Source: a virus (Duplodnaviria; Heunggongvirae; Uroviricota; Caudoviricetes). Taken from it: a stretch of DNA of 27,747 nucleotides. Position numbers and translations under genes: made by a program. The notes under the pieces were generated by a model that ran no database searches, had not been told where the DNA came from, and worked only from the letters and a program-made list of their open reading frames with translations. Positions 1 to 27,747 of the stretch are shown here, piece by piece. The stretch lies in the IMG/VR virus record IMGVR_UViG_2675903278_000003, one strand, 5' to 3'. Numbering within the stretch: position 1 is the stretch's first letter; the number at the start of each line of letters is the position of its first letter.

Positions 1-298
1 ATTCGGTGAACGCACTATGGCGACGCTGGGGCGTCTTATGAGCCTGCTGTCACCCTTTGACGTGGTGATATGGATGACGGATGGCTGGCCGCTGTATGAA
101 TCCCGCCTGAAGGGAAAGCTGCACGTAATCAGCAAGCGATATACGCAGCGAATTGAGCGGCATAACCTGAATCTGAGGCAGCACCTGGCACGGCTGGGAC
201 GGAAGTCGCTGTCGTTCTCAAAATCGGTGGAGCTGCATGACAAAGTCATCGGGCATTATCTGAACATAAAACACTATCAATAAGTTGGAGTCATTACC
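1..298 (+). mobile_element. IS1 insertion sequence, partial (3' part; window starts inside the element); insB-proximal terminal inverted repeat ends at 298
   Basis: Sequence ends with the IS1 terminal repeat '...aacactatcaataagttggagtcattacc' at 271-298; encodes the InsB C-terminus; a near-identical copy in opposite orientation lies at 27073-27747. Confidence 0.9.
2..283 (+). CDS. insB: IS1 transposase InsB reading frame, C-terminal portion (5' end outside window)
   Basis: Translation '...[93 protein letters not shown]' matches the full-length copy at 27088-27591 except one residue (R here, Q there); stop TAA at 281-283. Confidence 0.85.
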
Positions 299-403
299 AA
301 GCCAGGCATTAGCCATTAAAACAGCTTTATTTTTAGCGTTCTCACTCGTCCAGGCGTTCCCAAACGCATTATCAACGTCATCACAGGTCACGTAAGTGAT
401 CAT
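299..403 (-). pseudogene. 5' fragment (about 35 codons) of a phage structural gene downstream of the capsid gene, truncated by the IS1 insertion
   Basis: ATG at 401-403 (minus) preceded by SD 'AGGAG' and overlapping the stop of the upstream ORF; frame reads MITYVTCDDVDNAFGNAWTSENAKNKAVLMANAWLG and then runs directly into the IS1 end at 298. Confidence 0.4.
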
Positions 404-406
404 GTG

Positions 407-583
407 TTACTCCTGAGTTTTCCAGCCCATAGCCTTCCAGTTGTCAACTTCATCAGGATGAACATTAGCGATAGTTGGTGCGCCGGGAAACATCTGATAA
501 TCGGTCACCATAACCACTAACTCAATTTGCGTTTTTTGTGCGGCTTCACGCTGTGCTCTTTGCTCTTTAGTTAATCCGGCCAT
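407..583 (-). CDS. Small hypothetical phage head-module protein (58 aa)
   Basis: ATG at 581-583 (minus) preceded by 'GGAGGG'; translation MAGLTKEQRAQREAAQKTQIELVVMVTDYQMFPGAPTIANVHPDEVDNWKAMGWKTQE; lies directly after the capsid-gene terminator; below the 60-aa cut-off of the ORF track. Confidence 0.45.
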   Translation of the reverse strand: MAGLTKEQRAQREAAQKTQIELVVMVTDYQMFPGAPTIANVHPDEVDNWKAMGWKTQE

Positions 584-590
584 ATGCCCT

Positions 591-615
591 CCATTAAAAA
601 TGGGGCCGAAGCCCC
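591..615 (-). terminator. Putative intrinsic terminator downstream of the major capsid gene
   Basis: GC hairpin 'ggggccgaagcccc' (602-615) followed on the minus strand by 'TTTTTAATGG'; directly after the capsid stop codon at 626-628. Confidence 0.5.
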
Positions 616-625
616 GTTTGAATGT

Positions 626-1765
626 TTAACCAAGAATCAGACAACCATGTGCCGGCTTCACTGATGAAACACCCCATGCCAGTCCAACTTCATAGCGCAC
701 CTGGCGATACTGACGATACAGTGCAATCTGGAACGTAATCCCTGAAATCGGGTCCGTAACATTCATTACATCATCAGCATTATCGCCACCTTCCGGCATT
801 GCCGGAGTACGGGATGCCAGCAGAAACGCGTTGCGATCAAACGCCATATTTGCCGTAAAGGCCCCAACAACTGTGATGGCAGTATCATCGGCCAGATCCT
901 GACGCAGTCCGGGCGCTGCAAGAGTAATCAGATTGCTGGTCGCTGCTGCCACAACATACTGATTCGGATCACCAGCGAACGTAACAATCTGACCTGCAGA
1001 AATACTCCCCGAACCAGTATCAATGGAAATAAGAACATCGCCTTCTTTTTTCTCTCCATTCACGAGATAACCAGTTGCAGCAACCTTTGGCGCTCGTTTC
1101 ACACCTGCCGAACTGTGAATATTGAATCCCTCCAGACGCCCCAACACGCCCTCACGCAGTAGCTGTTCAGTGCCGGATTCATTCACTTTAAACAATACAG
1201 ACTGTTTTCCGCGCAAATTAGCAATGGCAGTGGAGCCAAGCACCATCTGCAGATCGGTTGTCGGTGCGCCGTTATCCTCCAGAACCTGACGAGCCAGAGC
1301 AGCATCAGAAAGATCATCTTTAACACCAAACGGCGTTGTCCCTGCGGTTCCCACGGCGCGGGAAGCACCGAAATACAACGCACCAAGATCAGCCTCAACC
1401 TCGTTTGCAAGGGCGCGAAAAGCCTGCTTGAACTGATCAGCCAGAATGGTGTTGTAAGTCCCTGAAGGGCCAAGAGCCAGTTGTTCTTCACCATTCCATT
1501 TAACCGGTGCCATTTTGGATTTAGTAATTTTTACATCAACAGTGCCAATATTTTGATCACCGGTATTCGGAGCTGACGGCCCCGGTACGATATCTTCGGT
1601 TTTCGCCTCAGGCGCAACTGGCGCGGTTACCGTCTGATCTTTTGCTGCGGCGTCAGCTTTTGCGTTTTTTGCTACCGCAGGGATAAAACCTACCTGCTCA
1701 CGGGATACAACATCCAGGGCGGTATAAATAGTCGGGATCAACCCGGTCAGGGTATTTCCAGCCAT
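626..1765 (-). CDS. Major capsid protein (379 aa from ATG at 1765, MAGNTLTG...)
   Basis: Long ORF at the end of the head module after portal, MuF-like and scaffold genes, followed by a terminator; the ORF-track start at 1858 would overlap the scaffold gene, so the internal ATG at 1763-1765 preceded by 'AAGGAA' is preferred. Call is from gene order and size, not a recognised motif. Confidence 0.65.
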   Translation of the reverse strand: MAGNTLTGLIPTIYTALDVVSREQVGFIPAVAKNAKADAAAKDQTVTAPVAPEAKTEDIVPGPSAPNTGDQNIGTVDVKITKSKMAPVKWNGEEQLALGPSGTYNTILADQFKQAFRALANEVEADLGALYFGASRAVGTAGTTPFGVKDDLSDAALARQVLEDNGAPTTDLQMVLGSTAIANLRGKQSVLFKVNESGTEQLLREGVLGRLEGFNIHSSAGVKRAPKVAATGYLVNGEKKEGDVLISIDTGSGSISAGQIVTFAGDPNQYVVAAATSNLITLAAPGLRQDLADDTAITVVGAFTANMAFDRNAFLLASRTPAMPEGGDNADDVMNVTDPISGITFQIALYRQYRQVRYEVGLAWGVSSVKPAHGCLILG

Positions 1766-1863
1766 AATTAAATATTCCTTAAAAATTTGCGTAATTGTGA
1801 ATAGATGGAGTAATGAGCTATCCAGCCCTGACACCAGCTCCCATCCGGAAGCTGACAAATGTG

Positions 1864-2628
1864 TTAATCAACGATTGTGATACCGTCTTTCAATGCGTTT
1901 TGCTTACCTGCAACATCCAGTGCATCAAAAGCAGAGCGTTTCATCGTTTTCTGACCAATATCATGCTGTGTCGGACGGGAGCCGCCGCCATTGTTGCCAC
2001 TGGCTTTCAGGATGTAGTCTTTCTGAGGGTAATTTTCGACAAGGAACTCCAGCGCCTCATCAAACTGCGCCAGTTCGCCAGGCTTCGCGCGGGAATAAAT
2101 TTTGTTGCCGGAAGCGTCATAAGCAACGATCCTCCCTTCTTCCACTTTGAATGCCTGCCCGAAGCGGGCTTGTAATAAATCTGCCGGGATCGCAATTTTA
2201 TCGGCAATATATTTTGAACCCGCAAAACTACCGCCAATCATAGAATCGTAAAGCTGCTTCTCCAGCATCTGAGAGCGTTGCTTTTCTTCATCTAATTGCT
2301 GCTGAAAATTTTTCGTAATTTCTGCCTTAACCTGGTCAACCTGTCCCGCATCGAGCAGCTTTTTCTGGTCGATTTTTGACAGCATTTCCAGTGCCTCGAT
2401 CGCCTTCTTCGGGTCTTCGATAGCGGCAAACTTAGCCAGTTTTTCCTCTGCAGCTTCTTTAGCCAGGCGATGATTTTTTGCCTCGCCATTAAGCTCTGTA
2501 ATTTTTTTTGTCGCCAGCGGTGCATCGAAGCCAATTTCTTTACCATCGTCGTGCACATAAACTGGCAGGCCAGCAGTATCAATTTCTGCGTATTGTTTTC
2601 CGTTAATCTCGACCGTTTTCAGTTTCAT
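1864..2628 (-). CDS. Head scaffolding-like protein (254 aa from ATG at 2628, MKLKTVEING...)
   Basis: Highly charged, predicted coiled-coil central region (EAKNHRLAKEAAEEKLAKFAAIEDPKKAIEALEMLSKIDQKKLLDAGQVDQVKAEI...) immediately upstream of the capsid gene; position-based call. Confidence 0.5.
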   Translation of the reverse strand: MKLKTVEINGKQYAEIDTAGLPVYVHDDGKEIGFDAPLATKKITELNGEAKNHRLAKEAAEEKLAKFAAIEDPKKAIEALEMLSKIDQKKLLDAGQVDQVKAEITKNFQQQLDEEKQRSQMLEKQLYDSMIGGSFAGSKYIADKIAIPADLLQARFGQAFKVEEGRIVAYDASGNKIYSRAKPGELAQFDEALEFLVENYPQKDYILKASGNNGGGSRPTQHDIGQKTMKRSAFDALDVAGKQNALKDGITIVD

Positions 2629-2732
2629 ATTAGTACCTGGTTTAAGTCTTCCGACAGTTACGCTGCTCACCATCCGGATCGCAGCAATAAAAAAGGCCAC
2701 CCGAAGGTAGCCTGTTGTAATAAATGATTTAT

Positions 2733-3848
2733 TTAAATCCCTGCTTTTCTGAATACCTGTGCATCACGCTCACGGAGCTGCTTCAGCGTCAGCCATTCGC
2801 CTTTATCGGTGTAAAATTCATCTGGCGACATACCACCATCCCGAATCAGCTTTGCTCGGGTTTCCCCCACAATCTGTTTTTGTCTGGTGTAAGGCTGACG
2901 CAAAAACCATTCCCTGTAGGTTGTATCTCCGGCCACCACGCCATCCATGCTGGCCCGCTCAGCCGGGGAAATATCGCGAACATCAATACCCAGTTCCTTC
3001 GCTGATTTCAGAATGAACGTTTCCGTTGAGCGGCAGCAGAAATGAATTTTTCCCGGCCCCTGCAAATAAGGCACGCTGTGACCTACAGGTTTATTATTCA
3101 GCGTATATTTGAGGCGATCCCTGATTCGACATTGTGGCGTAGTACGATTATCAAGCGTTGATAACCATTGCTTACCCTTAATCAAATCATTATTCGCGCT
3201 GGCAAAACTCTCACGGGCAGTAGCAGCAAGATGTCCAACCGCTGTTTTTGCAATGCTGGCCGCATTAGCCCGGCTCATCTGCAATGCACCATCCTGAAAT
3301 CCCTTACTGACATGTCCCCGAATTTTTCTTGCGATCTGCTCATTGGTATCCCCCAGCAAAAAACCCTGACGCACTGTATTTGTTATGCGTCTGAGCCGAT
3401 CCGCCTCAAGATCTGAGGCCCACTCACTGAGCAGTCGTCCCTGGAATGGTCGCGCCATTGCAGCGGCATAAAGTGCATCAGGAGAGATACCAACCAGAGG
3501 GTGAACATCAGCAACAAAATCAGGTAGCATAGAATCAAACAGACTTAACTGATAACCAGCCTCATAAATTGCCAGCTCGTTCAGCTCTCCGGAGAGACTG
3601 GTAAACATGCTGTTAATAGCAGTGCGGTTAACCTTTCTGACGCTCGCCAGAAGTGACTCCAGGCGCTTAACGGTAAAATTACCTGGATCGAGGCTGTCCA
3701 GTGCTATCAGCAGGCGAGCAGTAAGTTCCGCATCGCTGTCATTCAGTATTTTCACCATTCTGGCAGCCACGCCAGTGCTATAGCGGGATATCCAGACTGC
3801 ATGAGCAATTGATTCATCACGCAGCCGTTCATTCACGGTTTGCATCAT
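2733..3848 (-). CDS. Phage head morphogenesis protein, Mu gpF / SPP1 gp7-like minor head protein
   Basis: 371-aa ORF containing '...LSTLDNRTTPQCRIRD...', the hallmark motif I recall for the Mu F-like head morphogenesis family; located directly after the portal gene and overlapping its stop by 20 nt. Confidence 0.75.
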   Translation of the reverse strand: MMQTVNERLRDESIAHAVWISRYSTGVAARMVKILNDSDAELTARLLIALDSLDPGNFTVKRLESLLASVRKVNRTAINSMFTSLSGELNELAIYEAGYQLSLFDSMLPDFVADVHPLVGISPDALYAAAMARPFQGRLLSEWASDLEADRLRRITNTVRQGFLLGDTNEQIARKIRGHVSKGFQDGALQMSRANAASIAKTAVGHLAATARESFASANNDLIKGKQWLSTLDNRTTPQCRIRDRLKYTLNNKPVGHSVPYLQGPGKIHFCCRSTETFILKSAKELGIDVRDISPAERASMDGVVAGDTTYREWFLRQPYTRQKQIVGETRAKLIRDGGMSPDEFYTDKGEWLTLKQLRERDAQVFRKAGI

Positions 3849-5235
3849 TGATTTCCATCAGCATTACACTCTGATTTTTTAATTCATCGATCACTTCCTC
3901 TGGACGGGAATCCTGATCGATAAATTTCAACGCCTGCAACACCCGAACCGCATCAATCTGACGTATATCACCGCCCTGACGCAATGACTGAACAGCCAGC
4001 GCGGAGGATGAGTCAAACACCTGGGCAGATACATCCAGTTCAGTGCGCACATCCACATTGCCACCGCAACTCTCTCCGATCCATTCCGCCATTATCTGGA
4101 GAATATTATCGAGGGCATCTTCGAGGGAGTTCGCCATTGTATAAAGCGGCGAGTTTTCCTGCATTCGCTCTTCATTAGTCTGATCAACAGATTTGGTGGA
4201 TGTATTTTCAGCACGCAGAAGTTTAGCGCCGGCATGACGCATCTGATTTTCCAGCTTCTCAAGTGATGTTTCGCCAGATTCAATCGCTGCGCCACTATGT
4301 TCAACATATTCGAGGCCATTTTTTGTTCTGTCCTCAAAAATCGTAGCGGTGGATGCACCAACCGTCAGTTCTTCATTCCTGTCCAGCCCGTAGGCCACCA
4401 GCAATGGAACGCGGGCAACATGAAGAATATTGTCCTGCTCGCTCTGGCTTTGCCAGTGCTTGATATTCAGCAAGCCAAGATTAAGCAATGGCGGTGTACC
4501 ACGCATAAATCCTGTTTTCTTCGTGTACAGTGTTACCAGAGGAATATCATCACGGCTGGTATTCCATGACTCATGAAGCGTCCAGACAGATTCGCCATTA
4601 GTGCCTTCGCTACGTCGATAAATTTCAACTCGACGGGGCATAATATGGCGGATCTGCTCCACCTTCTTCTGCCCGAAATCATCACCATCAATAATGATGA
4701 CCTCTTTTATACGCAAATCAGTGAGAACAACTTTCCCTTTTTCAACTTTCGATTTCCATCCAATAACCTGGCGTGGATTCAGCATCGTAACGTACGGACG
4801 ACCACCGGTCGCGTTTTCATCGGCTTTTGTACGAATCTCTTTCATATCCGTTCGTGGGTAGTCCACCAGCGCATGTGCCACACCATACTGAAATGCGAGG
4901 CTGAAAAATTGCTGCGCCCACACATCCAGTCGGCTCCCCTCCATGTCGATATTTTCTGCATATTCCCTGATTTTTGCCGGCGTTTCCTCACTCAATACTG
5001 TCGGCTCTGCAAATATGCGCCCAATATTTTGCTTGATGCTTTCTTCATACACAGGAAGTAGCGTAGCCACAGACAGGCGTTTTTTATAAGCGTCTTCATC
5101 TTCGTTAGGCCATTTTGGGAGATAATTTTCCCCCTGCCTGCGCATTTCAAGCGTACCGCCCATCAGTGCGTCGTTAATATCCCACGCCTCCAGCATATCG
5201 TTATAGTCGAGGTTGGGTGTTGATATATCAGCCAT
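3829..5235 (-). CDS. Portal protein
   Basis: 468-aa ORF starting 3 nt after the TerL stop, acidic C-terminal region; position between large terminase and MuF-like gene. Confidence 0.7.
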   Translation of the reverse strand: MADISTPNLDYNDMLEAWDINDALMGGTLEMRRQGENYLPKWPNEDEDAYKKRLSVATLLPVYEESIKQNIGRIFAEPTVLSEETPAKIREYAENIDMEGSRLDVWAQQFFSLAFQYGVAHALVDYPRTDMKEIRTKADENATGGRPYVTMLNPRQVIGWKSKVEKGKVVLTDLRIKEVIIIDGDDFGQKKVEQIRHIMPRRVEIYRRSEGTNGESVWTLHESWNTSRDDIPLVTLYTKKTGFMRGTPPLLNLGLLNIKHWQSQSEQDNILHVARVPLLVAYGLDRNEELTVGASTATIFEDRTKNGLEYVEHSGAAIESGETSLEKLENQMRHAGAKLLRAENTSTKSVDQTNEERMQENSPLYTMANSLEDALDNILQIMAEWIGESCGGNVDVRTELDVSAQVFDSSSALAVQSLRQGGDIRQIDAVRVLQALKFIDQDSRPEEVIDELKNQSVMLMEINDANRE

Positions 5236-5237
5236 AA

Positions 5238-6548
5238 TTAAATCCGAAGTGATGTGACTCTTCCGGTCGGTTTGACAATAGGGAATTGCTTAACGATGAA
5301 ATAACCTCCGGCATCATTCGGGTGATCATTGCCAGATTTTTTATCAGGCTCCCCCTTCTCATCCCAGACCTGTTGCTCCAGAGATTCGGCATATAACGGG
5401 CAACGCTTCACATTAACTTTATAGCGACGCTCACCATTGGCATTGCAGAACATTGCATTCATTGAGTTAACGCGATCTTTTACTGGCGGGTTCGAGCTGT
5501 TCACCACAACGTTAAAACCAGCCTGCTTAAGCTGGGCTATATCCGTCGTACTTGCGTTACTTGATTTTCTGGAATCCCCGGAAGCATCTGGATAAATATA
5601 AATTTCCCTCACTTTCCGGTAATCATTCCCATCATACAGCCAGAAGCGTTCTTTAATGATGCGGATCATATCCGGCGTATCGTAGGCATTGATGATTTCA
5701 GTTACCGCACATGGAAGCCCCAAACGCAGCACATGGACGATTCCCGCCATCTTTCCAACGTTAAAATCCATCCCAATATAAATCGGCTCCCCTGGCTGCT
5801 CCACTTCTTCGCAATTATTCAGTTTCCGGTCAAACTGATGGTAAACAGTACCACTTGTCAGGTTAGTAAACTGTCCTCGAAGATAGGCTTTAATCAGCTC
5901 TGGAGGGTATGATTCAAGAAGCGAAGGAATGTAATCTGCTGGCAGGTTCTTTTCATTATCGAAAGTAGATGCCTGCACCAGACCATACAGTGAGGCCAGC
6001 TCTGTTTTTTCACGCACGGCTTTAACAAACTGCTCGTAGACAAATTTGAATCCTTCCGGCGTGGTTGTAACGTCAATACCGTTGCGAAGTCCATCAATCT
6101 TATAACGCATACGTGCAATTATCTTGCGCCACGCCGTTCTGGCTTTTTCCTTCGGCAAAATGTCCAGTTCATCCACCAACGCATTACCAATTTTGAAACC
6201 GACGATCGTTTGTGGCTTCTCCATCGATCTGCAGATAGTGGTTCCCCGATACTGGCGTCCGTAATAAAAGTGAACCTCTTTATTTCCCTCATTAATTTTT
6301 ACGTTCAATCCCCAGTCAGCAGCAACTTCTTCCACTGTAGGGTAAAAAATATCGCGAATTTGGGGATACGTTGGCGCAAAATATCCCTGATTTATACCTG
6401 GATGCTCCCAAATCCCCTTGCATATGCCGCCACACCCAACCCATATTTTGCCCGAGCCAAAACCAGCAATATAGGCTTTAAATTTATGGGGCATTGAAAG
6501 AAATCGCGCCTGAGGCACATTAAGCGTCGGAGAGATCATCTTCATCAC
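5238..6548 (-). CDS. Terminase large subunit (alternative start at about 6539, MISPTL...)
   Basis: 436-aa ORF with N-terminal P-loop-like 'AYIAGFGSGK' and a C-terminal acidic nuclease-like region (IYIGMDFNVG...DASGDS); immediately follows the small-subunit gene. Confidence 0.8.
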   Translation of the reverse strand: MMKMISPTLNVPQARFLSMPHKFKAYIAGFGSGKIWVGCGGICKGIWEHPGINQGYFAPTYPQIRDIFYPTVEEVAADWGLNVKINEGNKEVHFYYGRQYRGTTICRSMEKPQTIVGFKIGNALVDELDILPKEKARTAWRKIIARMRYKIDGLRNGIDVTTTPEGFKFVYEQFVKAVREKTELASLYGLVQASTFDNEKNLPADYIPSLLESYPPELIKAYLRGQFTNLTSGTVYHQFDRKLNNCEEVEQPGEPIYIGMDFNVGKMAGIVHVLRLGLPCAVTEIINAYDTPDMIRIIKERFWLYDGNDYRKVREIYIYPDASGDSRKSSNASTTDIAQLKQAGFNVVVNSSNPPVKDRVNSMNAMFCNANGERRYKVNVKRCPLYAESLEQQVWDEKGEPDKKSGNDHPNDAGGYFIVKQFPIVKPTGRVTSLRI

Positions 6549-7614
6549 TCCTTACTCTGGCATCAACCACATTAATATTGATCGCCACAGGCTGGGGATG
6601 TTCATTATCTTCCACCGTTTCGATCTCTTTGCGCAGCTTCTGGTTTTCCATTCTGCGCCGTTCAATTTCCAGTTCCTGTAGCCGTTTATCTGCACATAAA
6701 GCCCCGCCAGCAGAAAACAAACGCAACAATTCACGCCGGGCGGCAGCCTTATCCTCCAGCAGGATCTCAACGCCGAATTTTCCGAATTTTGCCCCTGCAT
6801 ATAATTGCCGCGCATCCCCATCAAGCAGAGTGGTATCAGCCATATAAAGCTGTCCCGTTCCCTCACCGCAGCACTTCGGGCAGTCCGGATTGGGTATGGC
6901 GTTATCAACAAAGCCGAGGCCTCCATATTCCGGTTCGGGTTTGCCATCTCTGGAAGCCTGCGCCGCTGCCTTGTCGAATTCTGCTATATCGCGCCACTGG
7001 TAGAGATGATTCTCGCCCCAGCAATAACGGCAGTTAACACGGCGAAATTGTGCAAGCTGATTGGGGTCGGCCAGGACAATAGCCATCAACTGACTCACTA
7101 GTAAATCCAGGTCTGCGGTATAGCGTTTCTGGTACTGATTGCGGAAGTAGCTGATAGCGCGAAAAACCCTGGCATTTCTAAGCATACGACTGGCGTTGCT
7201 GTTAGCTGTCGCACCTTGCCCCTCATAACCGGCTAGTCGGTACGCCTCTGTCGGCTTTTTACCCTGAGCAACAAGCATCGCAAACTTAGCCTGCTGGTCA
7301 GAAATGCCGAATTCATCGGGACAGAACGAAAATTCCTCCGCGTCGCCCTCATTCAGGCCCGCATCGAATACTGGCTTTTTTTCCTGAGATTTTTCGTTCC
7401 GCTTTTGTGCAGTCTGCGCAGATTTTTTCTGCGCACTTTTTTGCGCAGTTTTGCACATTTCTGTCTGCGCATTTTTCGGAGTTTTTTTGATGTAACGACG
7501 GGCTGTTGCGTAATTCAGTCCCCTTGCTTCACACCATGCCACCGGAGATATACCGGAGCGGGTGTATTCAGCAATATACTCCTGCTGCAACGCCCCCCAG
7601 TCCGGTCTGCTCAT
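6520..7614 (-). CDS. Terminase small subunit (Terminase_2 / P27-like core with N-terminal HTH and lysine-rich linker)
   Basis: 364 aa; segment 'QQAKFAMLVAQGKKPTEAYRLAGYEGQGATANSNASRMLRNARVFRAI' resembles the small-terminase signature; gene lies directly upstream of TerL with overlap. Confidence 0.65.
   Translation of the reverse strand: MSRPDWGALQQEYIAEYTRSGISPVAWCEARGLNYATARRYIKKTPKNAQTEMCKTAQKSAQKKSAQTAQKRNEKSQEKKPVFDAGLNEGDAEEFSFCPDEFGISDQQAKFAMLVAQGKKPTEAYRLAGYEGQGATANSNASRMLRNARVFRAISYFRNQYQKRYTADLDLLVSQLMAIVLADPNQLAQFRRVNCRYCWGENHLYQWRDIAEFDKAAAQASRDGKPEPEYGGLGFVDNAIPNPDCPKCCGEGTGQLYMADTTLLDGDARQLYAGAKFGKFGVEILLEDKAAARRELLRLFSAGGALCADKRLQELEIERRRMENQKLRKEIETVEDNEHPQPVAININVVDARVRSDEDDLSDA
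7406..7471. repeat. Cluster of palindromic hexamers TGCGCA (4 exact copies plus TGTGCA and TGCACA variants) inside the terminase small subunit gene
   Basis: Exact 'tgcgca' at 7415-7420, 7430-7435, 7442-7447 and 7466-7471, variants at 7406-7411 and 7453-7458; underlies the KTAQKSAQKKSAQTAQK peptide repeat. Confidence 0.6.
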
Positions 7615-19374: not shown

Positions 19375-20252
19375 GCCATCTGAGCCATCTGCGAACGTTT
19401 CTTGAGGCCTATCGCTCTGGCTCCTTTTCAAAGGCGGCAGAACTACTGGGCATCACTCAGCCCGCGGCGTCACAGCATATCCAGTCTCTTGAGACTCTGG
19501 TTGGTAAGCGTCTGTTTATCAGGCAGGCCAGAGGCGTGACGGCAACCGAAGCTGCGGATGAGCTTGCCCGCTCAGTTTCACCCTTCATTGATGGTCTGGA
19601 AGAAAAGCTGTCCTCTTTCCGGTCAGGCTCTGTACGCGGGGGAACAATTAATCTGGCAGGACCGCCAGATTTTATTCATTCCCGGCTTGGGACAGTAATG
19701 GCTCCACTAATGAAGGAGGGGTATCGCCTACGCTTTCATACCGGCAATAAGCAACGTATTTATTCCCTTTTGCATGACGGGAGCGCCGATCTCGCTGTTA
19801 CCGCATCTATGCCTGATGACCGTCTGTACGGCTATGCACATCTACTGACTGAACGCATGCTCCTTGTTCATGCTCCCGCCATGTCAGAGATCATCGGATC
19901 AGAACCTGGTGCTGAAACGCTTGCCTCATTACCGCTGATTGCTTATGACGAAGAGTTGCCACTGATTAGAGCGCTCTGGGCCTCCATGTTTCAGAGAGCC
20001 CCTGAGATGCAGGCTACATTCACCATTCCGGATTTACGTATTATCCGCGACTTGGTCTGTGACGGCCACGGGTGGACAGTGCTGCCGGATTATCACTGTG
20101 ACAATGACCTGAAAAGTGGTCGCCTGATTTCAGTGACACCTGCAGACCTCGCTCCGACTAATCATCTTTATCTGGTCTGGAACAAAAGGACGGCTAATAA
20201 CAGCCGAACCGCCTATGTTCGGGATTACATTCTTAAAACGTTTCCGCGTTGA
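19371..20252 (+). CDS. LysR-family transcriptional regulator
   Basis: N-terminal HTH 'LRTFLEAYRSGSFSKAAELLGITQPAASQHIQSLE' then a substrate-binding-like domain; ATG overlaps the ChaC-like stop (ATGA); the first codons contain a 9-bp tandem duplication 'agccatctgagccatctg' (SHLSHL). Confidence 0.8.
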   Translation: MSHLSHLRTFLEAYRSGSFSKAAELLGITQPAASQHIQSLETLVGKRLFIRQARGVTATEAADELARSVSPFIDGLEEKLSSFRSGSVRGGTINLAGPPDFIHSRLGTVMAPLMKEGYRLRFHTGNKQRIYSLLHDGSADLAVTASMPDDRLYGYAHLLTERMLLVHAPAMSEIIGSEPGAETLASLPLIAYDEELPLIRALWASMFQRAPEMQATFTIPDLRIIRDLVCDGHGWTVLPDYHCDNDLKSGRLISVTPADLAPTNHLYLVWNKRTANNSRTAYVRDYILKTFPR

Positions 20253-20296
20253 TGTTTGAAACGGATGATTGGCGATGCGTATCATAAGTTACGTAT

Positions 20297-20326
20297 GTCC
20301 GCTTCTGGCACAAAGCAGACGCCCAC
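20297..20326. repeat. 30-bp repeat copy 1 ('gtccgcttctggcacaaagcagacgcccac'), partner at 23970-23999
   Basis: 24 of 30 positions identical to the copy at 23970-23999 by eye, with an exact shared core 'ttggcacaaagc' / 'ctggcacaaagc'; lies in the convergent intergenic region between the LysR and DUF2254-like genes. Confidence 0.55.
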
Positions 20327-20382
20327 TCTCACGCGAATGCTTTGCCCTTGACTTGCCAACAACCGTATCGCTTGCTCCGCAA

Positions 20383-21675
20383 CTATGGTTTTTTATTAGA
20401 ATCTTCGCCACTAAATAAATTATAATAAATTGATTTTATTAGATATCTGTCAGAATCTATATGGTCAGCACGAGTAGCATGCTCTAATGTTTCAAATGCT
20501 AGGGTTTGTGCGGCTTCAGCAAAAATTCCAGGCCAACCCTTACTCAGCATCGACAGTCCTTTAAGTACCCTTATCTGAATTTCCCTCATACTGGCACCAT
20601 CGCGCGCAACAGGTGAGAAAAAGTCTTCAAGTAGATCGTTATTCTGAAGTGGTGCAACATGTACAGAAGGATATTTCACTTCTATTTCATCAGATTTATT
20701 CTGCGCGTAAGCGGAAAGTATACGTACACCTCTGCCAATGACATCAATGGCGGTTCCAGGATCGTTCACTGCGGGGGAAAGGGCTCGGCAGGCTATTTCG
20801 GCCATGACGCTAAGACAAAATCGGGGGTCCTGAGCAAATGAACGTACATCCGAGACAATAATCGTCTCAAGTAAATCGGTGCTGATTGATGACTCCTGGC
20901 CCTGACTCAGGTACAAAACTGGCGTGGACGGATGTATGAAACTGCCCGGCTGCGCCACGAGGTATACATGACGGGGATCATTGGTCAGCAGCTTGCTGAG
21001 TTTCACCATATCAACATATTCAACATAGCCAATCTTTTTCGGATAAACTGCAACCGTTCCTTTCGGCTGTTCATTGTTCTCAAGCCATGGATATCCGCCG
21101 AGACAGGGATTTCTTGCTCTCGCAATAAATGTTTCGATGGCCGCCTGTTCTACTTTTGCCGTTGTCTCACCAACCCTCCCCAGAGAGGTCAAATGCTGTA
21201 TCCAGCGAAGCAATGTGATGAGGATTAAGGCAATGACAACCAGTGTTACAATGAATAAAATGACTCTCCCCCTTTCTCCATAAGCTCCCATATTGAGGGC
21301 AATAATCCCTACCAGACTGAAGAGAAAAGAACCGATGAAGGTGGCCAGTACATTTTGTGTGGTGACGTCTTCAACAACTAAACGAGTAGCTCTGGGAGTC
21401 ACATTAGTAGTGGCTGAACCGTAGGCTGTGACCATGATGCTCAGCGAAAATGTGGTCACTGCCAGCATACTCGATGCCAGTATGTTCAGAATGTTATCGA
21501 CTGCTTCCGCACCAACCTTCACGGAAACCGACTCAGGTATCATTGATTTAAAAAGAATTGATAAAAGGGCCGTTATTATTGCGACAATTGCGAATAACGT
21601 TGCCCTGAACCATAGTTTTTTAAATGTCTGCTTCAGCATCCATTTCCAGCGTGAAATCATTCTGCATTCCCTCAT
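20383..21675 (-). CDS. DUF2254-like membrane protein (N-terminal TM helices plus large soluble domain)
   Basis: 430-aa ORF with about four N-terminal hydrophobic helices; family name from memory; start may be at the internal Met (MISRWKW...). Confidence 0.6.
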   Translation of the reverse strand: MRECRMISRWKWMLKQTFKKLWFRATLFAIVAIITALLSILFKSMIPESVSVKVGAEAVDNILNILASSMLAVTTFSLSIMVTAYGSATTNVTPRATRLVVEDVTTQNVLATFIGSFLFSLVGIIALNMGAYGERGRVILFIVTLVVIALILITLLRWIQHLTSLGRVGETTAKVEQAAIETFIARARNPCLGGYPWLENNEQPKGTVAVYPKKIGYVEYVDMVKLSKLLTNDPRHVYLVAQPGSFIHPSTPVLYLSQGQESSISTDLLETIIVSDVRSFAQDPRFCLSVMAEIACRALSPAVNDPGTAIDVIGRGVRILSAYAQNKSDEIEVKYPSVHVAPLQNNDLLEDFFSPVARDGASMREIQIRVLKGLSMLSKGWPGIFAEAAQTLAFETLEHATRADHIDSDRYLIKSIYYNLFSGEDSNKKP

Positions 21676-21723
21676 ATTGCAGCCGGGATAAATAAATGCC
21701 GCCTCTGTGGCGGCATGTTGCTG

Positions 21724-23727
21724 TTAACGAACCAGATGCAGGAAGTGCAGGTGTTTTTCGTACTGGTCCAGTATGTCATTAATCAGCTGTTCCTGATTCC
21801 AGCCCATTACATCATAATTTTGGCCGCCCTCTTTGAGATAGACTTCAGCGCGATAATATCGATGTTGTTCACTCTGCTGCTCATCATTATCCAGCGCAGC
21901 GAGCGCGAAGGTCGGTGAGTTATACCCGCGAAGCCTCACTTCATATATATAATTCAGCTCGTTGCCCAAATCGACTTCAAGGCGAATACGATCCTCGGCG
22001 GCGTCACTGATGTGGCTTATCGTTCCCTGCTTGTTAAGTTCCTCCTGAACCAGCGTCATGGCGGGTTGGATAATGTCGTCCATAAAACGTTTCACAAGAG
22101 AGCGCTTCGGCAAATACGCGATATTGCGTAACCTTCTCTGCCAGGGAATTGGGTTACGTGCAGCCGTAGGAGCAATAGTCGCCATGCTAAGGCTTTCACG
22201 CTTGGTCAAATCCCGACGCAGGGCTTTTAACAGTCCGTATATGGATATTAATAAGATAACTGAGAAGGGCAATGCACTCGCTATCGTTACGGTTTGCAAC
22301 GCACTCAGCCCCCCTGCGATCAGCAGGGCAATAGCAACAACGCCCATGAGCGATGCCCAGAAAATTCGCTGCCAGACGGGCGTGTTTGCCACCCCACCTG
22401 ATGCCAGAGTATCCACAACCATTGCCCCCGAATCAGCAGACGTTACAAAGAAGACGATGACCATCGCCATTGCAATGAATGACAGCACGGAAGAGAACGG
22501 GAAATGCTCCAGGAAATTAAACAGGGCAAGCGCAACATCCTGCTGAACGGTATTGGCGAGGTCAGTGGCGCCCTGGTTCATGATGAGATAGATGGCGCTG
22601 TTTCCAAACACCGTCATCCACATGAGCGTAAAGCCGGCGGGAACAAACAACACGCCAGTCACGAACTCACGAATTGTCCTGCCGCGGGAAACGCGTGCAA
22701 TGAACATACCTACAAACGGCGACCATGAAAGCCACCATCCCCAGTATAATAATGTCCAGCCCCCCAGCCAGTTGCTCGACTTGGGTTCATACGCGTAAAG
22801 GTTGAACGTTTTACTCACCAGTTCCGACAGATAACCACCCGTATTTTCCACAAATGACTTCAGCAGAAGCACAGTGGGACCCAGGCACAAGACCAGCGCC
22901 AGGAGCAACACCGCCAGGCCCAGATTAAGCTCAGACAGGATGCGTATTCCCTTGTCCAGGCCGGACACCACCGAAATCGTCGCTAACCCCGTGATGACCA
23001 CGATCAAAATGACCTGTACCGTTTCATTGATGGGCACGCCGAAAAGATGGTTCAAACCGGCATTCACCTGCAATACACCGTAACCCAGCGATGTTGCAAC
23101 GCCAAAGACAGTGCCTATCACGGCGAAGATATCAACCGCGTGGCCTATAGGCCCGTAAATGCGATCGCCGATAATGGGATAGAGCGCAGAACGCAGCGTT
23201 AAAGGCAGACCGTGACGGTAACTGAAAAAGGCCAGAATCAGCGCCACGATGGCATAAATTGCCCATGCGTGCAGACCCCAGTGGAAGAACGTCAGGCGCA
23301 TGGCTTCCTTCGCTGCCGCAACGGTCTCTGGAGTGCCGACAGGTGGCGAAAGATAATGCATCACAGGTTCGGCAACGCCAAAGAACATCAGGCCGATCCC
23401 CATCCCTGCCGAAAAAAGCATCGCGAACCAGGAGTGGTAGCTGAAATCAGGCTGCGCATGGTCTGGGCCCAGCTTTATATCACCGTAACGTGAGAGTCCA
23501 AGGAACGTGACGCTCAGTAAAATCAGGGCCACAGCAAGTATGTAGAACCAGCTGGCATTCGTGAAGATTTGTTGCTGAAGTAGTTTAAAATTTTTGTCGG
23601 CGACATCCGGGAATACGGCGGCAAAGGCGACAAGAAGGAAAATTAGCAAAGCAGATGTAAAGAATACCGCTTTGTTAATCTGGCTTGTAGACTTCTTTGG
23701 GGTTGTATCATTTTCACTCATAATCAT
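21724..23727 (-). CDS. BCCT-family transporter (BetT/BetU-like choline or glycine-betaine transporter)
   Basis: 667 aa, multi-TM with Trp-rich segment 'GGWTLLYWGWWLSWSPFVGMFIARVSRGRTIREF' typical of BCCT transporters, long hydrophilic C-terminal tail. Confidence 0.85.
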   Translation of the reverse strand: MIMSENDTTPKKSTSQINKAVFFTSALLIFLLVAFAAVFPDVADKNFKLLQQQIFTNASWFYILAVALILLSVTFLGLSRYGDIKLGPDHAQPDFSYHSWFAMLFSAGMGIGLMFFGVAEPVMHYLSPPVGTPETVAAAKEAMRLTFFHWGLHAWAIYAIVALILAFFSYRHGLPLTLRSALYPIIGDRIYGPIGHAVDIFAVIGTVFGVATSLGYGVLQVNAGLNHLFGVPINETVQVILIVVITGLATISVVSGLDKGIRILSELNLGLAVLLLALVLCLGPTVLLLKSFVENTGGYLSELVSKTFNLYAYEPKSSNWLGGWTLLYWGWWLSWSPFVGMFIARVSRGRTIREFVTGVLFVPAGFTLMWMTVFGNSAIYLIMNQGATDLANTVQQDVALALFNFLEHFPFSSVLSFIAMAMVIVFFVTSADSGAMVVDTLASGGVANTPVWQRIFWASLMGVVAIALLIAGGLSALQTVTIASALPFSVILLISIYGLLKALRRDLTKRESLSMATIAPTAARNPIPWQRRLRNIAYLPKRSLVKRFMDDIIQPAMTLVQEELNKQGTISHISDAAEDRIRLEVDLGNELNYIYEVRLRGYNSPTFALAALDNDEQQSEQHRYYRAEVYLKEGGQNYDVMGWNQEQLINDILDQYEKHLHFLHLVR

Positions 23728-23969
23728 TTATTCCATTAATTAAATCCGCACTGGATAGAAGGTACTACCTCTCACAGAGTAGCAAAGTTCAACTGGCTAT
23801 GCGGGGTTAATCGGAATGCATGGTGGAATGAGTGCCGATACAAATCATCCTATATTCTAAGGAGTTTTAAGTTACTCAGCCTGCCAATTACTGGGGCATT
23901 TAATTTGTATGATCTGTATCAAAGCTGGGATATAAGTTAAGTGAAGTATATTAGGCACGAATTACCAGC

Positions 23970-23999
23970 GTCTGCTCTTGGCACAAAGCGGACAACCAC
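23970..23999. repeat. 30-bp repeat copy 2 ('gtctgctcttggcacaaagcggacaaccac')
   Basis: See copy 1 at 20297-20326; this copy lies in the promoter-side intergenic region upstream of the BCCT gene. Confidence 0.55.
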
Positions 24000-24061: not shown

Positions 24062-24484
24062 TCACTTCAATAAATACCGAACATCCCCCTGATAAAACGA
24101 CAATATGCGCTGCATAACTTCGCTCTTCCGGCACTCGCGACAGATTATGTTTAGGCGACTGTCGTAGCGACGTATTTCTCCGTCAGGTAATGACCAGATA
24201 AGGTCCGGATCAACCACAACCGGTTTCTTCAGCTTTGCCCTCGATAATTTTTTGCGGGCATTTTGCCAGTCTTTACGAGCCTGTTCAGACGGGAATAACC
24301 CGTAGCCAGAATTGTATACATCGCCACTGGCAACCAGCTCTCTGGCCAGAACGCTCATCAGATATCTTGTTGCCCCAGTTTTAGCTTCCAGTTGTCGTAA
24401 CGTCTCGCGCCCACTCTGGCGTACGAGTTCAAGAACCTGCCCTTTAATTTTTTCCCGCTCTTCTTGTGTAAAAACTTTTGCCAC
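24062..24484 (-). CDS. Hypothetical phage protein (140 aa, GTG start), downstream of the O-like gene
   Basis: SD 'AGGAGGG' upstream of GTG at 24484; basic protein with CxxC near the C-terminus; no Walker A motif, so not a DnaC/P-type helicase loader. Confidence 0.55.
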   Translation of the reverse strand: MAKVFTQEEREKIKGQVLELVRQSGRETLRQLEAKTGATRYLMSVLARELVASGDVYNSGYGLFPSEQARKDWQNARKKLSRAKLKKPVVVDPDLIWSLPDGEIRRYDSRLNIICRECRKSEVMQRILSFYQGDVRYLLK

Positions 24485-24524
24485 AAGCCCTCCTGAAAAT
24501 TACCTCATGACCAGAAATTAACAC

Positions 24525-25595
24525 TTACCCCCTGAAGCCCGGCGGAATTTCGTTATCCGGTTCAGAAATATGATTCACACAACGCTGGTTGTTCGTGCCG
24601 CTTACCGGGAGCAACCAGGGGTTCTCAAAATTCCGGTCCGGTCCAAAAAACGTCGTCGCTCGCTGAACAAATTCCGTTCCCGTTTTCCCGGTAGCCGCCA
24701 AGTATCTTGCGTAACGCCTCACGCCATCCAGCATGGCCTCTGGTGGCACCCCCTCGCGTAATCTGGCCTTCCAGGCACTGAAAGCGGATTTCTTCGGGTT
24801 TGCCCCAGCACGCAACGGGTACTCCCGCCAGACCTGTTCGAACACATCCGGATAATCCACTCGTCCCACAGACTGCCCGGTGTTTTCCGGGACTACCCGA
24901 TCGGCTTCCCGCTGAATGGCGGAATCGGCTTCAGGCTGCTGCAGTTGGTGTGATTGCTCCGCCCTTGCGGTCATCACCTGCTGCACAGCGCCCGAATCGG
25001 CTTTCAGCGCATACGCTGAATCGGCTTCCGGTGTCGTGCCTGCTGGCTGACCAAGATTGACGGTCTGAACATCCCCTGCCTGGTTCGTGGCGTTTTTTAC
25101 GCCATGGACCATAGTGTTTTGATCTTCTTGATCTGTATCTTTATCTGTATCTTTATCTGTCGTGACTCGTCGTGACATGTGCGTGACATTTCGTGACGCG
25201 CCGTGACAATCGCCATTTTGTTCCCGCTTTCTTTCCCTCTCTCGCTGCGCCCTCTTGCGCTCTGCAGGAGATTTTGCGGTTTGCGAAATATTGCCGTTGT
25301 CCTCTTTAAGCACCTGGCGTTTTTCCCATCCAGTGATTAAATCACCATCAAGTACCCGCCCCTGCATCGTCTGCAAAATTGAATCAATTACCTCTTCTGT
25401 CACGTCGAGCGCACTTGCCAAATCTTCTGTCGTGACATCAATGTGACCTCGCGTGACATTTCGTGACGCGCTCACCAGGAGGTGGATATACACTGCCATC
25501 ACTGTTGCAATTGGCTGTCCTGACACCCTGGCAATTGTTCGCCACTTAGGGTCATTTGGCATGTCATGCCATAATCTGAGCCAGGCGTTAGCCAT
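24525..25595 (-). CDS. Replication initiator (lambda O-like / YdaU-like replisome organiser) containing internal iterons
   Basis: 356 aa from ATG at 25595 (MANAWLRLWHDMPNDPKW...); the coding sequence contains two clusters of GTGAC-type repeats, as lambda O carries its own ori iterons; low-complexity acidic middle (DKDTDKDTDQED); located downstream of Cro-like/YdaT-like genes. Confidence 0.6.
   Translation of the reverse strand: MANAWLRLWHDMPNDPKWRTIARVSGQPIATVMAVYIHLLVSASRNVTRGHIDVTTEDLASALDVTEEVIDSILQTMQGRVLDGDLITGWEKRQVLKEDNGNISQTAKSPAERKRAQRERERKREQNGDCHGASRNVTHMSRRVTTDKDTDKDTDQEDQNTMVHGVKNATNQAGDVQTVNLGQPAGTTPEADSAYALKADSGAVQQVMTARAEQSHQLQQPEADSAIQREADRVVPENTGQSVGRVDYPDVFEQVWREYPLRAGANPKKSAFSAWKARLREGVPPEAMLDGVRRYARYLAATGKTGTEFVQRATTFFGPDRNFENPWLLPVSGTNNQRCVNHISEPDNEIPPGFRG
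25161..25210. repeat. Iteron cluster A: five copies of a 10-bp-periodic 'cGTGACa' motif, adjacent to an AT/GATC-rich stretch (about 25115-25160) with tandem 'tatctttatctg'
   Basis: 'cgtgactcgt cgtgacatgt gcgtgacatt tcgtgacgcg ccgtgacaat' read directly from the sequence; the 20-mer 'gcgtgacatttcgtgacgcg' recurs exactly at 25451-25470. Confidence 0.7.
25427..25470. repeat. Iteron cluster B: four GTGAC-type repeats including an exact 20-bp copy of part of cluster A
   Basis: 'ctgtcgtgacatcaatgtgacctcgcgtgacatttcgtgacgcg'; also within the O-like coding region (encodes SRNVT-type peptide repeats). Confidence 0.65.
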
Positions 25596-25666
25596 ACTCA
25601 CCTCTTTTGATACCGAATCTTTTTACTCACAAATTGCCGGAAGTGATCCGGTATGAATATTGCGAG

Positions 25667-26092
25667 TCAATGCACAGCCACAATATTTCCTGCAGGGCCA
25701 CCACGATTCATCTGGTTGAAACCAGCGATCGCCACTGCGACAAAATCATCAGCGTCTCTCACCAGTCGTTCCCGCGTCTCCACTAGTTCCCGAAAATAGG
25801 CTGAGCTATGGCTGCGCATTCGGGCCACCAGCAGAGGTGGCATTGCTTTTTCGATAGCTGGTAACAACGCCTGAATTTTTTCAACTGCATCAGGGGTGTC
25901 TTTCTCTACCCAGCGGAAAATTTTCTGGGTATTGCGAGCCAGGGCTTCCGGATGGCTGTCGTCATACAGTTCTGGGAACGTCATACCCAGTTCAAAATAA
26001 GCCCTGGTTATTTCAGCTGCCGGAACTTTTTCACCGTCCGGATGCGCCCAGGCATTCATCGCCATGCGGATGTGTTCATGCTTGATTTTCAT
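25667..26092 (-). CDS. YdaT-like (CII-like / DUF1019) regulatory protein
   Basis: 141-aa 'MKIKHEHIRMAMNAWAHPDGEKVPAAEITRAYFELG...'; second gene of the rightward-equivalent early operon after the Cro-like gene, as ydaS-ydaT in Rac; name from recalled similarity. Confidence 0.55.
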   Translation of the reverse strand: MKIKHEHIRMAMNAWAHPDGEKVPAAEITRAYFELGMTFPELYDDSHPEALARNTQKIFRWVEKDTPDAVEKIQALLPAIEKAMPPLLVARMRSHSSAYFRELVETRERLVRDADDFVAVAIAGFNQMNRGGPAGNIVAVH

Positions 26093-26357
26093 GAATCAAG
26101 CTCCTAGAAAGTGGTTGTGTTAACATTTTGGTATCTTCCAGCTCGGGCCAAATATTCATCCAATCAAAAGGCCTTAGTTGCTGACGTGTAACTTCACCAT
26201 TACTGGCTCGCTCAATAAGGACACATAACGATGCCCCTAACACTTGACCTTTACTCAATGCCTTTCTTAGATAACCGATGCTGGTACCACACTCGCATGC
26301 AAACATACGCTGTTCATCTGACGAAAGAGAATTGAGAAATATTCTTAATTCTTCCAT
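26076..26357 (-). CDS. Cro-like / YdaS-like HTH regulator
   Basis: 93 aa with HTH-like 'RMFACECGTSIGYLRKALSKGQ'; SD 'AAGGAG' upstream; divergently transcribed from the repressor gene across an operator-rich intergenic region. Confidence 0.65.
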   Translation of the reverse strand: MEELRIFLNSLSSDEQRMFACECGTSIGYLRKALSKGQVLGASLCVLIERASNGEVTRQQLRPFDWMNIWPELEDTKMLTQPLSRSLIHENQA

Positions 26358-26461
26358 AGCTACTCCTTAGTAAACACAGCAAAGAACACCCATAGGTAAA
26401 CAAAAGTCAATACCCACAGGTTGTTTACCTTGCAGTAATCGCATCTATTATTTACCTATGG
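26358..26461. promoter_or_regulatory. Divergent immunity-region promoter/operator segment with at least three copies of a 'CCATAGGTAAACA'-like motif in both orientations
   Basis: 'cataggtaaaca' forward at 26391-26402, 'ggttgtttacct' (reverse) at 26420-26431, 'atttacctatgg' (reverse) at 26450-26461 overlapping the repressor ATG, and a weaker 'tagtaaaca' at 26368-26376 over the Cro-like SD. Confidence 0.6.
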
Positions 26462-26877
26462 ACAAATATGAATTTAGACGACAGCAACTCATCAAAATTC
26501 GTGATGAGAAATGCGATGGTAAAGCGGTTAACGTGGCCAGAAAGATCGGGCGCGAGCCTTCTTATGTATCAAGAATGTTGTACCCAGAGGGGAAAAAGGG
26601 AAAAAAACGGATCGCTGATGATATGGTGGAGATTATCGAAGAGTCCTTTGGGTTACCCCGGGGATGGATGGATGGTATCGTTTCATCATCAACGAACACA
26701 GCCTCCAGTTATGAAACAAGGGTTCTAACGCCACGACAACGTATTTTTTTAGATCTCTTAGACGAACTGCCAGAAAGTGAAGCGGATAACTTATTAAAAA
26801 CTCTTGAAGAGAAAAAACAGTATTACAATATGATCTACGAAGAAATCCGTAAAAAGAAAGCACAAAACGCATCATAG
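26458..26877 (+). CDS. Prophage repressor (RacR/CI-functional analogue), HTH protein
   Basis: 139 aa with HTH 'KAVNVARKIGREPSYVSRML'; divergent from the Cro-like gene; no recognisable SD, and the start codon lies within an operator-like repeat (leaderless-like arrangement). Confidence 0.65.
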   Translation: MDKYEFRRQQLIKIRDEKCDGKAVNVARKIGREPSYVSRMLYPEGKKGKKRIADDMVEIIEESFGLPRGWMDGIVSSSTNTASSYETRVLTPRQRIFLDLLDELPESEADNLLKTLEEKKQYYNMIYEEIRKKKAQNAS

Positions 26878-26922
26878 CTCACCAAACAACTAGTCACCAG
26901 TTAAGACACCGCAAAAAGTTAC

Positions 26923-26960
26923 CCATGGGTATTTACTTTTTAAATACCTATGGGTATCCT
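26923..26960. promoter_or_regulatory. Second pair of operator-like repeats downstream of the repressor gene
   Basis: 'cccatgggtatttac' and 'aatacctatgggtat' at 26923-26960, related to the motif in 26358-26461; the region beyond is cut by IS1 at 27073. Confidence 0.45.
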
Positions 26961-27087
26961 TCTTTTCATACCAACCCACCCCGCCCCACAGAATGCAGGG
27001 CAATACTTCGAGTTACCAGGCAGTGGTCAGGGGTTAAGTAGCCAGCCCGAGGCGTAAGAACATGACGGCGGGGGTAATGACTCCAAC

Positions 27088-27591
27088 TTATTGATAGTGT
27101 TTTATGTTCAGATAATGCCCGATGACTTTGTCATGCAGCTCCACCGATTTTGAGAACGACAGCGACTTCCGTCCCAGCTGTGCCAGGTGCTGCCTCAGAT
27201 TCAGGTTATGCCGCTCAATTCGCTGCGTATATCGCTTGCTGATTACGTGCAGCTTTCCCTTCAGGCGGGATTCATACAGCGGCCAGCCATCCGTCATCCA
27301 TATCACCACGTCAAAGGGTGACAGCAGGCTCATAAGACGCCCCAGCGTCGCCATAGTGCGTTCACCGAATACGTGCGCAACAACCGTCTTCCGGAGACTG
27401 TCATACGCGTAAAACAGCCAGCGCTGGCGCGATTTAGCCCCGACGTATCCCCACTGTTCGTCCATTTCCGCGCAGACGATGACGTCACTGCCCGGCTGTA
27501 TGCGCGAGGTTACCGACTGCGGCCTGAGTTTTTTAAGTGACGTAAAATCGTGTTGAGGCCAACGCCCATAATGCGGGCAGTTGCCCGGCAT
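27088..27591 (-). CDS. insB: IS1 InsB reading frame (expressed as InsAB' fusion by -1 frameshift)
   Basis: 167-aa frame matching the partial copy at 2-283 apart from Q vs R at one position. Confidence 0.85.
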
Positions 27592-27747
27592 CCAACGCCA
27601 TTCATGGCCATATCAATGATTTTCTGGTGCGTACCGGGTTGAGAAGCGGTGTAAGTGAACTGCAGTTGCCATGTTTTACGGCAGTGAGAGCAGAGATAGC
27701 GCTGATGTCCGGCGGTGCTTTTGCCGTTACGCACCACCCCGTCAGTA
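27510..27747 (-). CDS. insA: IS1 InsA, N-terminally truncated by the window edge
   Basis: '...[74 protein letters not shown]' is the zinc-finger/HTH InsA protein; the frame is open to the end of the window. Confidence 0.85.
27526..27536 (-). promoter_or_regulatory. IS1 programmed -1 ribosomal frameshift site (A6C slippery motif)
   Basis: Minus-strand 'TTAAAAAACTC' at the insA/insB overlap. Confidence 0.7.

Follow-up and report, generated by a model that had tools for sequence, protein, structure and literature searches.

The insertion sequence IS1 is known to erode the Rac prophage of Escherichia coli, whose K-12 version, to our knowledge, has neither a head module nor a cargo island. IS1 copies also flank composite elements, such as Tn1681 with its inverted pair, and the transposition frequency of IS1-flanked transposons drops steeply with length. 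Tn9 is another IS1-flanked composite transposon, and adjacent deletions that start exactly at the IS end and leave no direct repeats are described as typical of IS1/Tn9 (PMC9330008). Here, we analysed a 27,747-nucleotide stretch of E. coli DNA (IMG/VR record IMGVR_UViG_2675903278_000003; hereafter the window), in which 26,774 bp of inner DNA lie between two IS1 copies. Probably, this arrangement arose when IS1 inserted twice, independently and in the ordinary way, into a Rac-type prophage, with both ends of the sequenced contig falling within these copies; it adds one more example of an already known process.

The inner DNA matches many E. coli chromosomes with identities of up to 100%. The Rac prophage of strain TOE3 (locus L001) is colinear with it and differs by nine single-nucleotide polymorphisms (SNPs) and no indel, and the inner DNA shows five SNPs relative to strain ES6, apart from an IS100 insertion in the latter. 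In TOE3 and ES6, Rac is located between uspF/pinR and xisR-intR-ttcA, and the close relatives examined carry the segment within Rac next to ttcA. Annotation was derived from the TOE3 prophage and from Pfam and PHROG scans; window coordinates correspond to L001 coordinates minus 11702.

The two IS1 copies and their junctions

The features that define the two junctions are as follows.

1–298, plus strand: left IS1 fragment (IS1 nt 471–768), covering the 3' portion of insB together with the right terminal inverted repeat (IRR), which ends ...GGAGTCATTACC at 298; the remainder of the element falls before the contig start
299–307, no strand: 9-bp target of the left IS1, AAGCCAGGC (GCCTGGCTT on the gene strand)
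299–403, minus strand: 35-codon 5' part of a head-tail adaptor (Ad1) gene that is annotated as 'protein singed' and interrupted by IS1 at codon 35/36
27064–27072, no strand: predicted 9-bp target of the right IS1 in the case of a simple insertion, GACGGCGGG (TOE3 L001 38766–38774)
27073–27747, minus strand: right IS1 fragment (IS1 nt 768–94) with the IRR at 27073, a complete insB (27088–27591), the A6C frameshift motif and the larger part of insA; the remainder of the element falls beyond the contig end

IS1 has terminal inverted repeats of ~23 bp (GGTAATGACTCC... and GGTGATGCTGCC...). In the window, the IRR was found at 276–298, where it reads ...AAGTTGGAGTCATTACC, and at 27073–27095, where the right copy opens with GGTAATGACTCCAACTT. 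The two arms form a 298-nt inverted repeat, and both IRR ends, which are the insB-proximal ones, abut phage DNA. The initial annotation had described exactly such an inverted pair with its insB-proximal ends facing the phage DNA, and positions 1–298 and 27073–27747 bear this out. The left fragment shares 100% identity with IS1A of TOE3 across its 298 nt, and its called product matches PF03400 (DDE_Tnp_IS1). The right copy holds the full 167-codon insB and carries the frameshift motif TTAAAAAAC as reverse complement at ~27529–27537; its insA is incomplete.

It had also been stated that the two copies differ in InsB (R versus Q). Indeed, the 298 nt present in both copies differ at a single position, with G at window position 192 versus A at 27179 (in IS1 orientation), corresponding to CGG (R) versus CAG (Q). 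As compared to IS1A, the right copy shows three differences, at IS1 nt 393, 396 and 662, the first two of which fall outside the part covered by the left fragment. In the right copy, an otherwise IS1A-like backbone thus carries the IS1B-type bases at nt 393 and 396 as well as the substitution 662 G>A. A few other IS1 copies encode the same InsB R-to-Q variant; they lie at unrelated loci, one of them on a 131-kb plasmid-like contig. Use of the variant as a handle for tracing the right copy was dropped, since these copies at other loci carry Q and none of them has the flank seen in the window. As both contig ends are IRR ends and differ by the SNP at IS1 nt 662, they represent two different IS1 copies, which excludes the artefact of one IS1 on a circular contig. 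Two distinct IS1 copies in turn imply two separate events, and we infer that these were independent of each other and that the inner segment has not moved.

At the left junction, window positions 299–403 on the minus strand are identical to the first 35 codons of an intact 131-amino-acid gene in TOE3, whose product matches phrog_493, head-tail adaptor Ad1 (E 2e-48). The earlier claim of a structural gene interrupted by the left IS1 after 35 codons was therefore correct. Reading through the junction, an open reading frame (ORF) at 218–403 (minus strand) encodes a 61-amino-acid fusion product of adaptor and IS1; in public records of several assemblies this ORF is erroneously labelled 'Cell division inhibition protein DicB'.

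We built a model of a simple insertion, that is IS1 plus a 9-bp duplication, which predicts the string TCAGTAAGTTGGCAGCATCACCGCCTGGCTTAATGGCTTCAACCTG on the far side of the left IS1 and a far-side ORF of 65 amino acids that starts with TTG at adaptor codon 67. The exact 65-amino-acid protein was found in the collection on a single contig of 515 nt (L046), which comes from the gut metagenome ERZ919386 and thus from the same sample as one of the contigs carrying the near-side junction (L009). This contig reads ...GGCAGCATCACC, then GCCTGGCTT, then AATGGCTTC... (also given as ...CAGTAAGTTGGCAGCATCACC, GCCTGGCTT, AATGGCTTCAACC...): 124 nt identical to the left end of IS1 (IRL) are followed by the 9 bp and a further 382 nt. 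Its 391 nt of non-IS1 sequence show no mismatch to TOE3, cover the remainder of the adaptor gene and extend into its downstream neighbour. Hence, in ERZ919386, GCCTGGCTT stands after the IRL on L046 and before the IRR on L009, which is a perfect 9-bp duplication. With this duplication and the continuation of the gene, the left junction as such requires no deletion; it is the product of ordinary IS1 transposition duplicating AAGCCAGGC, as shown in this other carrier. A matching target duplication with phage sequence continuing beyond had been named in advance as an argument against deletion or composite behaviour, and this is what the left junction displays in ERZ919386. When the duplication test was applied to complete genomes, perfect 9-bp repeats were detected for IS1 copies in sieB (strains ECZP248 and 573) and upstream of ompN (ES6).

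Other candidates for the left far side did not hold. The 97-amino-acid C-terminal fragment of the cut gene (P0022) starts at codon 35, and as 23 contigs begin there, it was first taken as the far side. These contigs contain no IS1 bases, as compared to at least 117 nt on true junction contigs, and were rejected as mostly random fragmentation. Neighbouring start codons have 7 and 10 contigs, respectively, and the starts are spread over ~10 nt. Alternative calls of the far-side ORF (50 and 36 amino acids) are absent from the collection. A mosaic boundary at the left site was likewise rejected, as 726 of the 760 complete genomes carrying this region run continuously across the site. Where complete genomes show other truncations of the left boundary, an IS10-like insertion or deletions free of IS elements are involved.

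The right insertion target is intergenic, 195 nt downstream of the regulator gene and, as judged from intact relatives, 60 nt ahead of a ydaG-like gene. A simple insertion at this site predicts the far-side string GTAAGTTGGCAGCATCACCGACGGCGGGATTCAAATTTTGCAGTGCAGC, and the genome of the window, if no deletion has taken place, is predicted to contain the far-side junctions ...GGCAGCATCACCGCCTGGCTTAATGGCTTC... and ...GGCAGCATCACCGACGGCGGGATTCAAATTTTGC.... The predicted far-side patterns were not found in IMG/VR, JGI metagenomes and GTDB representative genomes.

Contig ends, IS1-associated deletion and composite transposition

An exact-protein look-up with the 61-amino-acid junction ORF revealed that the window is the entire contig CXYQ01000051.1 (27,747 bp) of the draft assembly GCA_001268485.1; the first 10,403 bases of the stored record are identical to the window. 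Both window ends fall inside IS1, and no DNA past either copy is included. The short-read assembler could not pass the multi-copy IS1, and the contig therefore stops inside IS1 on both sides. The same behaviour is seen on the other contigs sharing the left junction, which contain 117–141 nt of IS1 and in one case 365 nt. On MEGAHIT contigs labelled k127 or k141, the IS1 portion measures exactly 127 or 141 nt, as expected for an assembly graph that breaks at a repeat. Thus, the 'IS1-bounded prophage remnant' is for the most part an assembly artefact: the contig ends lie in two IS1 copies that inserted in the ordinary way into a Rac-type prophage. The initial annotation had concluded that phage DNA stops at the IS1 copies and that these removed the tail genes, the early-left arm, the integrase and the attachment site (att). 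The former goes back to the window ends, which are contig ends in a repeat, and none of the latter losses is observed, as the window simply ends inside IS1. In general, a contig with IS1 at both ends says nothing of the DNA beyond, and caution is warranted given the many such contigs from IS-rich E. coli draft assemblies.

We therefore favour the following scenario. A Rac-type lambdoid prophage of E. coli, which in close relatives is integrated next to ttcA, would have taken two independent IS1 insertions. One IS1 would have landed in the head-tail adaptor gene at codon 35/36, duplicating 9 bp, and the other one in intergenic DNA shortly after the immunity regulator gene. Short-read assembly stopping inside IS1 at both ends would then make the prophage look 'bounded'. 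Judging from the function of the adaptor gene, the left insertion alone should abolish virion assembly, leaving a prophage unable to build virions. An IS1-associated deletion beyond one or both copies may have followed.

Several observations weigh against two simple insertions. First, the IS1A copies of ES6 and TOE3 are only 553–616 bp away from the left site, have the same orientation and are identical over the comparable 298 nt; they lack duplications, and the tail genes are lost. An ancestor resembling ES6 or TOE3 that underwent an adjacent deletion of 553–616 bp would give the same near-side junction as present in the window. Second, no far side of the right IS1 was found, and no far-side contig was retrieved from the window's own assembly. 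Third, the 65-amino-acid ORF is recorded for the metagenome only and not for the four isolate assemblies with the near-side junction, which is a weak point, as gene calling differs between pipelines.

The relatives illustrate how such deletions may look. IS1 copies with the orientation of the window's left copy are present at the head-tail boundary in TOE3, ES6 and EC96, and H9Ecoli carries one in a related prophage at the bio locus. All four belong to complete genomes and lack a target duplication, and tail genes are lost in each case. On the scale of the TOE3 locus, their IRR junctions map to 11385 (TOE3), 11448 (ES6), 11461 (EC96) and 11781 (H9Ecoli), and that of the window to 12001; that is, five different IS1 IRR junctions are found within 620 bp, all in one orientation. 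In ES6, the left side reads pinR'-IS1A-head closure gene' and the right side ydaF'-IS1B-xisR, neither with a duplication. At the right side, which is 0.29 kb away from the window's right site, 5.7 kb are missing (ydaF to rcbA). The ES6-type pinR'-IS1 and the TOE3-type tfa'-IS1 junctions correspond to the strings GGAAAAATGATGATGCAGGTGATGCTGCCAACTTACTG and GTTTGCTGGCAGACCTGGGTGATGCTGCCAAC, respectively.

On this basis, it is conceivable that the tail genes and/or the sieB-kilR-recET arm are truly missing from the window's genome, owing to an IS1-associated deletion beyond one or both copies by intramolecular transposition or IS1-IS1 recombination. Two duplication-less copies in a strain only five SNPs away, the equally oriented copies of TOE3, EC96 and H9Ecoli, the adjacent deletions without direct repeats described for IS1/Tn9 and the lack of a recorded far-side ORF call in the isolate assemblies with the near-side junction all speak for it. 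However, ERZ919386 has the left junction with a matching 9-bp duplication and a continuing gene, the right IS1 is opposite in orientation to the ES6 copy, and two relatives, ECZP248 and strain 573, carry simple IS1 insertions nearby, in sieB, with the prophage continuing to intR-ttcA. Moreover, the window itself shows no missing DNA. Overall, we rate such a loss as falling slightly short of an even chance. Taken separately, a later deletion beyond the left copy in the window's genome is about evenly balanced between presence and absence, and one beyond the right copy, albeit a real prospect, is somewhat more doubtful.

A side observation concerns the spread of the left junction. The identical junction is present in at least eight samples and sits in at least three phage sequence backgrounds. 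Two IS1 alleles occur there: an IS1A-like allele in the window and in contigs L006 and L008, and a divergent allele in L003, L004, L005, L007 and L009, whose differing bases fall at the positions where the IS1 of strain 573 also differs. At position 590, all seven other carriers differ from the window, and the non-carriers TOE3 and ES6 agree with it. The left site may be a hot spot hit repeatedly by IS1 in one orientation, or it may reflect one old insertion that recombination and gene conversion among IS1 copies spread and reshaped; the mosaic right copy indicates that IS1 alleles do get mixed. In the former case, different IS1 variants would have hit the AAGCCAGGC site in the adaptor gene independently.

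Finally, the initial annotation had regarded the arrangement as composite-transposon-like and possibly able to mobilise the whole 26.8-kb segment. In such a reading, the inverted IS1 pair together with the Rac core (head, trkG, lysis, transporter cargo island, replication/immunity) would form a unit that was transposed from ttcA, or the segment would flip by recombination between the two copies. Two inverted IS1 copies do flank the segment, IS1-flanked composite transposons such as Tn9 exist (PMC9330008), and inversion between inverted repeats is always mechanistically possible. However, in ERZ919386, another carrier, the left IS1 is paired with a duplication of its own on the phage side, and an inner IS end with its own partner beyond the IS marks an individually inserted element rather than the inner end of a unit. 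No trace of movement was detected either: no plasmid record holds at least 80% of the segment, and neither window junction is present in 5,426 complete E. coli genomes, where every full-coverage match consists of two pieces with IS1 at a different position. The far-side junction is likewise absent from these genomes, neither junction was found in IMG/VR, and the relatives keep the segment in Rac next to ttcA. Hence, we consider transposition or flipping of the segment as a unit highly improbable. If true, it would mean that a phage core is carried by an IS1 composite element, and both this and the hot-spot idea would then be of modest interest for prophage domestication. Two ordinary insertions remain the preferred explanation, and nothing in the IS1/Rac arrangement of the window opens a long-standing question.

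Gene content of the Rac-type segment

The window contains a Rac-type gene set, that is trkG, a ParB-like ynaK, an immunity region of the ydaS/ydaT type and lambdoid lysis genes. It has neither an att site nor an integrase gene; the colinear relatives (99.97% identity) are integrated next to ttcA. Between the IS1 copies, the following regions were annotated.

407–7614, minus strand: head/packaging module with a 58-amino-acid protein, a P22-like major capsid protein (626–1765), a scaffold-like DUF6651 protein, a Mu-F-like minor head protein, a DUF4055 protein and the large and small terminase subunits
7805–11134, minus strand: TAGT-family glycosyltransferase, ParB_N protein (YnaK-like) and trkG
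11254–16919, minus strand: lysis cassette and late region with Rz-like protein, RrrD lysozyme, EssD holin, two TolA-domain genes, the small RNA (sRNA) STnc100, DUF1133/DUF1364/DUF1367 late-regulatory genes and hokD with sok
17471–23727, no single strand: cargo island of five genes (~6.3 kb) encoding an MFS transporter, a gamma-glutamylcyclotransferase, a LysR regulator, a DUF2254 protein and a BCCT transporter
24062–26877, no single strand: replication/immunity region with a DUF977 protein, a replication initiator (24525–25601), YdaT-like and YdaS-like helix-turn-helix proteins and a divergent 139-amino-acid regulator (26458–26877, plus strand)
26920–26966, plus strand: hairpin and T-run resembling a terminator, past the end of the regulator gene

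By its position, the DUF4055 protein is the putative portal. Just upstream of the terminases in transcription order, a gene for a TET-associated glycosyltransferase (PF20691) overlaps the ParB_N-domain gene (7805–9521). This pair may constitute a DNA-modification module; no TET/JBP gene was seen in the window. In the lysis and late region, STnc100 maps to 13764–13950 (Rfam, 87 bits), and the hokD/sok type I toxin-antitoxin locus occupies 16595–16919, with the Rfam match for sok at 16745–16919 (116 bits). The DUF2254-BCCT part of the cargo island (~20295–23994) recurs with 99.8–99.9% identity on many plasmids of E. coli and Klebsiella, e.g. the IncY plasmid pPO125.

PHROG matches in the replication/immunity region are phrog_3729 (replication initiation) and phrog_5736 (transcriptional regulator), and the 139-amino-acid regulator occupies the position of RacR. 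The replication initiator gene contains the 21-nt sequence GCGTGACATTTCGTGACGCGC as a perfect direct repeat at 25181–25201 and 25451–25471, i.e. 270 nt apart; none would be expected by chance, and the two copies may represent origin repeats. The hairpin at 26920–26966 is formed by 16 pairs from two TACC(C/T)ATGGGTA palindromes and lies ~110 nt before the right IS1. An operator/promoter reading of the palindromes at 26920–26956 was dropped in favour of this terminator-like hairpin with its T-run, and no promoter-like site was seen near the right insertion point.

A recurrent rearrangement endpoint was noticed in the part of the adaptor gene that lies outside of the window. It is located at L001 position 11854 (gene nt 252), between ...GGCT and GACGGGGTC, and is represented by loci L030 and L032. 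At this endpoint, independent in-frame deletions fuse the adaptor gene with the large terminase gene or, at either of two positions, with the ParB-like gene. Two such joints checked at the DNA level, one with the ParB-like gene and one with the terminase gene, both have CGGT at the left end. Three further proteins contain the N-terminal part of the adaptor up to the endpoint residue and then continue differently.

Comparison with described systems

With IS1 of E. coli (IS1A/IS1B type), the two copies share the terminal repeat GGTAATGACTCCAACTTATTGAT..., an insB with a PF03400 match and, in the right copy, the A6C motif. They are 99.6–100% identical to annotated IS1A, and the left site has the 9-bp target duplication. 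They differ in that the window holds fragments only, 298 and 675 of 768 nt, whose aligned parts are colinear with 768-bp copies, and in that the right copy is a mosaic (IS1A backbone with IS1B-type nt 393/396) with 662 G>A. As in the IS1 composite transposons Tn9 and Tn1681, two IS1 copies flank a DNA segment. However, the unit in the window would measure 26.8 kb and gives no evidence of movement, its left inner end has its own duplication, and its outer ends are outside of the contig.

A further close match is the fuller form of Rac at ttcA, as present in TOE3, ES6, ECZP248 and strain 573. It has the same gene order from the head-tail adaptor to the immunity regulator (99.97–99.98% identity), including trkG, the ParB-like ynaK, the lysis genes, the ydaS/ydaT-like genes and the cargo island, whereas the IS1 positions differ and neither window junction occurs in any complete genome. 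The IS1-truncated Rac variants of ES6, TOE3 and EC96, and that of H9Ecoli at the bio locus, resemble the window in carrying IS1 in the same orientation at most 620 bp from its left site. ES6 in addition has a second IS1 just beyond the immunity region, albeit in the opposite orientation to the window's right copy. The copies of these variants lack duplications and demonstrably border deletions, whereas the left junction of the window has its duplication partner in another carrier.

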